Shown in pieces: positions 26,521 through 27,018 of a DNA stretch of 64,000 bases. The stretch comes from an uncultured Candidatus Saccharibacteria bacterium (GTDB taxonomy: Bacteria > Patescibacteriota > Minisyncoccia > Minisyncoccales > Staskawiczbacteraceae), in the NCBI GenBank assembly GCA_964427585.1, contig CAYRVC010000004.1, positions 163 through 64,162 on the forward strand. The letters are read 5' to 3'. The notes below the pieces were generated by a model, which saw nothing but the letters and a program-made list of their open reading frames with translations, did not search any database and was not told where the DNA came from. Position 1 is the first letter of the stretch; every line of letters starts with the position of its first letter. The translations under genes were made by a program, and so were the position numbers.

Positions 26521-27018
26521 GTCTATGAGTTCACTGATTTTAACCAGCCGCCAAGCATTCTGCCCGTTTCGGCAAGTTTTGCTTGGATCTGGAATATTTT
26601 GGTTTCATTGGCAAGATCGAGTTCTAGGAATAGCCGTAACTTTAAGGTGGAAATTTCGATGTGGCTGGAAGCTTACCTTAGATATGGGGATGATTTTATT
26701 GTAATTTCAGAAAACTTAAAAAAATTGAAAGAGACCAGGGATACAGCAATTCGTTTTCTGGAAGACAATTTATTGTTAAAAATAAATAGCAAAAGTGATA
26801 TTATTGTAAAAGCAAAATGGGGGTTAAAGTTTTTGGGGGTCAAAATCTATCCAGGGGGTAGACATCTGAATAATAGGAATTTGCAGAGAATACATGATCG
26901 CATATCTTTGAAAAATGTTTCAAGTTATGCTGGCCTACTGAAGAAGCATAGCAATGATAGAAAGGTTAAATATTTTAATTGGCTACTGTTGGAGAAATTT
27001 TCTAACTATATTAATTGA
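26521..27018 (+). pseudogene. DGR reverse transcriptase, C-terminal fragment only (motif 5 YGDD, motifs 6-7, thumb)
   Basis: ...AYLRYGDDFIVISENLKKLKETRDTAIRFLEDNLLLKINSKSDIIVKAKWGLKFLGVKIYPGG.... The YGDD codons lie at 26683-26694. Motifs 1-4 are absent and no in-frame start is separate from the TR-spanning ORF 26365-27018. Confidence 0.65.

Follow-up and report, generated by a model that had tools for sequence, protein, structure and literature searches.

The DGR of Bordetella phage BPP-1 (mtd-avd-TR-brt; PMC5758913) combines an adenine-specific TR/VR pair, with the VR at the 3' end of the target gene, with a pair of proteins, Avd and the reverse transcriptase (RT). Its TR and VR share a GC-rich 3' boundary after which they diverge (IMH/IMH*), and DGR information flows from TR to VR (PMC5758913). 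There is ample precedent for truncated or otherwise inactivated DGR RTs beside TR/VR pairs that are still clean (PMC3521204; PMC5758913). A truncated RT beside a clean adenine pattern was read as recent inactivation by Schillinger et al. (2012; PMC3521204), and in the survey of Wu et al. (2018; PMC5758913) more than half of the candidate DGRs were set aside because of stops, truncations and comparable flaws. The cases described in these surveys involve transposon insertions, nonsense mutations and frameshifts.

Here we describe a DGR locus of Candidatus Staskawiczbacteria (Patescibacteria/CPR) within a stretch of 64 kb, referred to in the following simply as the window, which very probably lost its own enzymes by a single 804-bp deletion. 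The locus resembles the BPP-1 DGR in its adenine-specific TR/VR pairs, in the position of the VRs at the target 3' ends, in a putative IMH/IMH*-like boundary, GC-rich and common to TR and VR, and, in the case of its intact relatives, in the Avd and RT pair. It differs in that avd is encoded on the opposite strand, running towards the TR and divergently from the RT gene, in that two chromosomal targets and no phage tail-fibre gene are found, and in that both RT and avd are truncated in the window. It also differs from the survey cases, since one microhomology-bounded deletion hits the 5' parts of two divergent genes, and intact orthologues permit a reconstruction at the level of single bases. 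The coordinates of all features are collected in Table 1.

Table 1. Features of the DGR remnant and its surroundings, and blastn segments aligned to the intact orthologue L015. Positions are those of the window.
Feature	Position	Strand	Description
DGR target gene 1	20716..22074	+	ORF of 452 aa, intact; VR1 (21943-22059) at 3' end; orthologous to L083
Hypothetical gene	22162..22701	+	ORF of 179 aa; conserved in syntenic loci L083 and L090
AAA_5 (MoxR-like) ATPase gene	22710..24386	+	Pfam AAA_5, E 2.7e-07; between the two targets
DGR target gene 2	24647..26029	+	ORF of 460 aa, intact; VR2 (25898-26014) at 3' end
72-nt palindromic insert	26162..26233		8-nt direct repeat GCAATAAA flanking; outside the DGR machinery
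Non-coding stretch upstream of TR	26234..26403	+	170 nt, 97-100% identical to sister lineages
Chimeric ORF	26365..27018	+	217 aa: TR in VR frame, then avd antisense, then RT tail
TR	26404..26520	+	117 nt, intact; 30 adenines
avd remnant	26523..26672	-	Last 49 codons (26526-26672) and stop TAG (26525-26523) of a 113-codon bAvd gene
Deletion junction	26670..26674		4-5 nt microhomology (A/G)GCTT common to both ancestral flanks; blastn segments overlap here
RT remnant	26671..27018	+	Last 115 codons and stop of a 324-codon DGR RT; motif 5 YGDD through thumb
LOOT RNA (Rfam RF03000)	27056..27176	-	Score 77.1 bits (gathering score 46.4); full model, positions 1-121 of 121
Aligned segment 1	22730-26161		L015 1-3435, 89.5% identity (blastn)
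Aligned segment 2	26233-26674		L015 3428-3869, 95.7% identity, no gaps (blastn)
Aligned segment 3	26670-27277		L015 4669-5281, 88.4% identity (blastn)

The two target genes are paralogous, and each of the two VRs ends 15 nt ahead of the stop codon of its intact ORF. In comparison with the syntenic orthologue L015 (see below), target gene 2 shows 92% amino acid identity and the AAA ATPase 96.9%, the latter with a dN/dS of 0.02. The 179-aa hypothetical gene between target gene 1 and the ATPase has no Pfam match. VR1 has 16 mismatches to the TR and VR2 has 15, and all of them (16/16 and 15/15) fall on TR adenines, which account for 30 of its 117 bases; mismatches at non-adenine positions amount to zero in both VRs. 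The clean adenine-mutagenesis pattern that the original prediction had claimed for both VRs is thus borne out by 31 out of 31 mismatches. At the 3' boundary, GGCGTCCGTTCCGCG is common to the TR and both VRs, GC-rich and IMH/IMH*-like by sequence, with divergence after position 26520. An A-to-G difference at 26515 is fixed in every VR of all lineages compared.

The non-coding stretch directly upstream of the TR keeps its 97-100% identity between lineages whose synonymous sites are about 40% different. Judging from this conservation, it probably has a function, either as the 5' part of the TR transcript or as its promoter. The palindromic insert next to it ends in inverted repeats (GGATAGTG...CACTATCC) and encloses a further palindrome; it was found neither in the sister locus L015 nor a second time in the window. 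Two origins are conceivable, namely a miniature mobile element in the window or, in L015, a loss by deletion between the direct repeats.

The RT was analysed by three types of search. Against Pfam RVT_1, the ORF at 26365-27018 on the forward strand matches only profile positions 148-205 of 205, and the trimmed fragment positions 149-205. A clade-specific HMM was built from 37 full-length RTs and searched against the six-frame translation of the window, cut into 1846 pieces of 20 aa or more; this same ORF is its sole match (HMM positions 205-316, E 1.9e-41), with the runner-up in the window at E 0.66. Searches by tblastn with full-length relatives agree with the HMM in confining RT homology to this ORF. 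It is therefore the sole RT sequence in the six frames of the 64-kb window, as had been predicted from its tail. The remnant contains neither an internal stop nor a frameshift, and shows 83% amino acid identity to the RT of L015.

The motif 4 signature of DGR RTs is [I/L/V]GxxxSQ. In the related RTs and in the orthologue L015 this motif is present as IGNLTSQ, and its position lies within the segment that is deleted here. The original prediction had motifs 1-4 missing and had called for an RT-profile check of all frames around the fragment; this check, extended to the whole 64 kb, was negative, in that motifs 1-4 including the IGNLTSQ hallmark were detected in none of the six frames by Pfam, tblastn or the clade HMM. 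The window consequently contains no complete DGR-clade RT with motifs 1-7. The coordinates given for the YGDD codons (26683-26694) and the TR end (26520) were both found to be correct. The extent given for the RT fragment, 26521-27018, was not: RT homology starts at about 26665-26671, and the sequence between 26523 and 26672 is the 3' end of avd on the minus strand.

Translation of the minus strand at 26523-26672 gives ASSHIEISTLKLRLFLELDLANETKIFQIQAKLAETGRMLGGWLKSVNS*, the C-terminus of bAvd. This assignment is supported by tblastn (E 5e-22) and by the clade Avd HMM (positions 65-113, E 2.4e-23), with 98% amino acid identity to the Avd of L015; the match to Pfam bAvd covers positions 72-107 with an E of 0.0019 and 19.1 bits, which is under the cut-off of 40. 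The start codon and the 5' 64 codons of avd are gone, so that no complete bAvd gene is present. Avd homology stops at 26672 and RT homology starts at 26665-26671, meaning that two gene tails abut on opposite strands. The 150 nt from the TR to YGDD are the 3' end of avd and not a scrambled RT N-terminus. The original prediction had named only the RT, so that the loss of avd comes in addition. In the case of its description of an internally deleted and frameshifted gene, the deletion turned out to be real, but there is no frameshift; instead the 5' two-thirds of the RT and the 5' 57% of avd are gone.

The frame +3 peptide PAAKHSARFGKF..., which had been taken for a relic of the RT N-terminus, is the antisense of the Avd C-terminus (...ETKIFQIQAKLAETGRMLGGWLKSVNS*) with its Avd HMM match at E 2.4e-23. 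A split or rearranged RT, with its N-terminal half placed elsewhere in the window in another frame or strand, was conceivable because RTs in two frames are known from many relatives and because this peptide had looked vaguely RT-like to the earlier reader. We give this explanation practically no credence: RT positions 1-204 are unmatched in all six frames by the clade HMM and tblastn, where the best other hit has an E of 0.66, and the peptide itself is the reverse side of a stretch with a strong match to Avd. The presence of a known RNA in the interval, such as a group II intron, was considered as well and rejected, as Rfam yields only the downstream LOOT RNA.

Important insight into the origin of the two tails came from intact relatives. 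With each species represented by one genome, 178 loci with relatives of the window RT were counted; the best 80 were inspected, and nearly all of these RTs are full length at about 330 aa. In 73 of 82 related loci, avd occupies the minus strand, and about 0.8 kb separate it from the RT C-terminus downstream. The 68-kb contig L001, which carries an IGNLTSQ RT, may serve as an example, with a target, a TR, a minus-strand avd gene whose end directly follows the TR, and the RT gene on the plus strand. In this clade the avd stop lies 2-3 nt past the TR and the region 3' of the TR is avd antisense, unlike in the Bordetella prototype. A short form as the ancestral state is contradicted by more than 70 intact relatives.

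Cassettes with intact avd and RT genes were found in three related groundwater Staskawiczbacteria lineages, at 72-96% DNA identity to the window, and their gene order is target, hypothetical gene, AAA ATPase, target, TR, avd (-) and RT. The syntenic orthologue L015 (identical to L084) is Candidatus Staskawiczbacteria RIFCSPHIGHO2_02_FULL_43_16, MHOU01000006.1, and encodes an intact bAvd of 113 aa (Pfam E 2.2e-11) and an intact RT of 324 aa (RVT_1 E 1.8e-16). L083 (contig Ga0209541_10011446), found by a metagenome scan with a 24-mer adjoining the junction, is a longer contig of the same sister and contains the whole cassette with both targets. The alignment of L015/L083 to the window begins at 20000 and reaches up to 26161. 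At 89-96% DNA identity, these sister loci share with the window the gene order, the two target genes, the AAA ATPase, the TR (3 differences in 117 nt) and a LOOT RNA downstream of the RT. They differ from it in possessing an extra 804 nt with the full bAvd and RT genes, in missing the 72-nt palindromic insert, and in their VRs, which deviate from the window VRs at TR-adenine positions. Comparison with the third lineage (L086-L089, five contigs) gives an identical gap of 804 nt in the window, and the more distant syntenic locus L090 is likewise intact, with an RT 78% identical to that of the sister.

In comparison with the intact cassettes, exactly 804 nt are missing from the window, and L015 3870-4668 has no counterpart there. 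The sister sequence reads CTGGAGGCTTTAATT at the left flank and CAATAGCTTATCTTAG at the right flank, and the window reads CTGGAAGCTTACCTTAG at the junction. The deletion runs from avd codon 64 to RT codon 209, so that Avd residues 1-64 and RT residues 1-209 are lost, and with them both start codons, the N-terminal 57% of Avd and RT motifs 1-4. In many related loci, avd (-) and RT (+) start head to head with an overlap of about 17 nt (L015 3995-4113, for example with the RT start at 4043 and the avd start at 4059). Because these overlapping starts lie inside the deleted segment, both starts and the 5' region presumed to hold the two promoters were removed together.

A simple course of events can be proposed. 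The ancestral layout was target 1, hypothetical gene, AAA ATPase, target 2, TR (+), avd (-) with its stop codon 2 nt past the TR, and RT (+). The flanks of the lost segment were joined at the 4-5 nt of microhomology, which suggests replication slippage or illegitimate recombination, and the deletion would also have taken the shared 5' region where the putative promoters of both genes must lie. What is left over is an intact TR, two intact targets with frozen VRs, and two gene stumps that happen to form an ORF of 217 aa. By the locus alone, diversification of the targets would no longer be possible.

In the intact sister, the corresponding ORF (L015 3560-3880) is closed by a stop codon of its own, a little beyond the junction site. 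The 217-aa ORF, whose product is annotated in GenBank as a hypothetical protein, is a chimera and most likely the chance product of a deletion that joined two open frames.

It had also been proposed that the assembly collapsed across the RT gene, in which case the missing 0.8 kb would reflect a collapse or a chimeric join and the real genome would hold intact avd and RT genes. The source is a metagenome-assembled genome (MAG), the junction was judged from assembled contigs, and stumps free of stops and frameshifts are what one would expect if nothing were broken. However, collapse by an assembler needs a repeat of k-mer length, and the flanks in the intact sisters share 4-5 nt only, far under any assembler k-mer. 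There are no runs of N in the window. Moreover, the same junction is found in the GenBank contig JACOYW010000040.1 (28,239 nt), which differs from the window elsewhere by 2 SNPs, a 66-nt indel and a 54-nt indel, even if the two samples are possibly not independent. The window proteins are also on record from another NCBI contig of 64,839 nt. With flanks sharing so little and the junction present in two NCBI assemblies, an assembly collapse is very unlikely. A minor intact allele in the population, or an error shared by the assemblies, may still be compatible with the contig data.

Concerning the two indels, the 66 nt missing from JACOYW010000040.1 are intergenic (window 22093-22158), and the 54 nt lie in frame in target gene 2 (window 25645-25698). 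The target 2 protein consequently has 442 aa in that contig and 460 aa in the window and L015. As the sister L015 has the 460-aa form, JACOYW010000040.1 is the odd one.

Two TR positions set the window apart from L083, L086 and the outgroup L090, with T instead of C at 26499 and C instead of T at 26502. Because L083, L086 and L090 all agree with each other, both changes arose on the window branch. Both window VRs carry the derived T and C, and the VRs of the other lineages have the ancestral bases, which amounts to TR-to-VR information transfer within the window lineage. Given the direction of flow from TR to VR, both targets were therefore rewritten after the split from the intact sisters, a split with a dS of about 0.5-0.7. 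Taken together with the zero non-adenine mismatches, the derived bases imply that the element was active after this split and died recently.

The stumps themselves were compared with the sisters at the level of single changes. The avd stump has 4 window-specific nucleotide changes and no amino acid change, and the TR with its upstream region has only 4 window-specific changes in 293 nt. The RT stump shows 13 window-specific replacements, all in poorly conserved columns, and its window-specific changes comprise 15 non-synonymous and 6 synonymous ones, versus 5/19 and 9/13 in the sisters (Fisher p = 0.003). No such excess is seen in the TR, its upstream region or the avd stump, where counts are small. 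This suggests that the RT stump is relaxed to some degree, with counts too small for a firm date, and an older deletion, followed by ongoing selection on the TR transcript, would account for this pattern as well. VRs clean at non-adenines, stumps without stops or frameshifts, an unchanged Avd protein and RT replacements confined to poorly conserved columns all point to a recent deletion. We read the deletion as recent relative to the split, yet not brand new, with the timing resting on small counts. Recent decay had been one of the explanations put forward in the original prediction, and it gains support from the 804-nt gap against intact orthologues and from the derived TR bases in both VRs.

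In the case of L086 (175-291, 602-718), the TR has three non-adenine differences from its own VR, and this VR is identical to the same-site VR of L083. Possible reasons are a chimeric contig, recombination of strains that occur together, and the lack of retrohoming since the TR changed.

A real deletion does not by itself silence the targets, as a cognate RT-Avd pair elsewhere in the genome could still service the TR and both VRs, so that diversification would be ongoing. Action in trans, and on targets located far away, is within the reach of DGR components (PMC5758913). The TR is intact, and so are its flanks of about 170 nt on the upstream side and about 150 nt on the downstream side (the avd 3' antisense). 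With 4 changes in 293 nt and no Avd changes, these parts are as conserved in the window as in lineages with an intact cassette, the RT stump being relaxed, and both VRs are perfect at non-adenine positions. On the other hand, the contrast in conservation is one of small counts, and a recent deletion would explain it just as well, the VRs are identical in two assemblies, and clade HMMs detect no second RT or Avd in the 64 kb. The best 120 of 3301 homologues of the sister RT include no HYT36-tagged protein, i.e. none from the same MAG, and the best 80 of 178 RT loci include no contig of the MAG, which is possibly outside the collection; both counts are uninformative rather than negative. Overall, we regard service in trans as unlikely, and prefer a locus that lost its enzymes and ceased to diversify its targets.

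The relatives gave rise to a further observation on the RT genes. The first protein search returned many short homologues, which looked like a conserved family of 'mini-RTs'. This candidate was rejected, as these proteins come either from genes cut off at a contig end or from RTs split at simple-sequence repeats (SSRs), of which they form the C-terminal halves; the splits at SSRs explain why short 'RT' proteins dominated the first list. In 35 of 84 related loci the RT is split into two reading frames, with the break on an SSR at one of two fixed sites. The first site is a (CA)n or (CT)n tract at about RT residues 117-126, and the second a (GA)n or poly-G tract at about residues 163-183, just before motif 4. 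Among 81 distinct loci, 43 have an SSR tract, 33 of them out of frame and 10 in frame; two-thirds out of frame would be expected under random tract lengths. Dinucleotide repeats of at least 6 units are located inside RT genes in 34 out of 34 cases, and none occurs in 465 kb of flanks. Examples of tracts are L001 7786-7827, L046 2560-2621, L055 1503-1538, L027 1253-1278 and L076 1253-1280. L027 and L076, which come from one project, are identical over 4861 nt except for (GA)13 versus (GA)14, by which the RT frame is switched. An in-frame (ER)n at the (GA)n site is seen in 7 of the best 120 full-length homologues, including the RT of the outgroup L090.

Judged from the sequences, these tracts look like an on/off phase-variation switch of the RT. 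A similar situation is the AG-repeat mod gene of Mycoplasma mycoides (PMC3498834), where a dinucleotide tract in the coding region sets the downstream frame, comparable to the otherwise identical contigs L027 and L076 that differ by one repeat unit. The difference is that the gene here is a DGR RT of Patescibacteria. In the literature searched, we found no publication linking DGR RTs to SSR switching.

Regarding the genomic neighbours, the LOOT RNA lies directly downstream of the RT stop and matches the full Rfam model over the gathering threshold. L015 has two copies (5055-5176 and 5952-6075), and 18 other DGR loci of the clade have none (0/18); the RNA is therefore a lineage-specific neighbour and not part of the DGR. 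Downstream of the intact sister cassettes are an IS3-type transposase gene and integrase genes (L015 6437-8490; L086 2787-3863), and upstream of the L090 cassette lies a Bro-N domain gene (L090 1-278). The downstream genes in the window are housekeeping genes instead, encoding a zinc ribbon protein, LemA and an HtpX-like peptidase. The cassette may be located in or beside a mobile element.

In conclusion, the window locus is a DGR remnant and not an autonomous DGR: it has adenine-restricted TR/VR differences, VRs in intact targets and information transfer from TR to VR, but neither a complete RT nor a complete Avd. The loss itself is an ordinary event of known type, and little changes beyond a base-resolved example of the death of a DGR. 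Clean adenine patterns outlast the enzymes, and therefore a clean pattern is not evidence of current activity. For annotation, caution is needed, as the 217-aa 'hypothetical protein' in GenBank is a chimera of TR, avd antisense and RT tail, and DGR callers that require an RT would overlook two targets diversified not long ago. If service in trans were true, the locus would be a natural 'orphan TR with two targets', kept by selection after the loss of its enzymes, and the first trace of this would be that the TR, the region upstream and the avd stump are evenly conserved and the RT stump is relaxed. The SSR tracts, although a side observation, are possibly of more weight than the deletion itself. 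If they really switch, chance would decide in these bacteria whether the hypermutation machinery itself is on or off, which would explain many of the 'premature stop' DGRs dropped by surveys.
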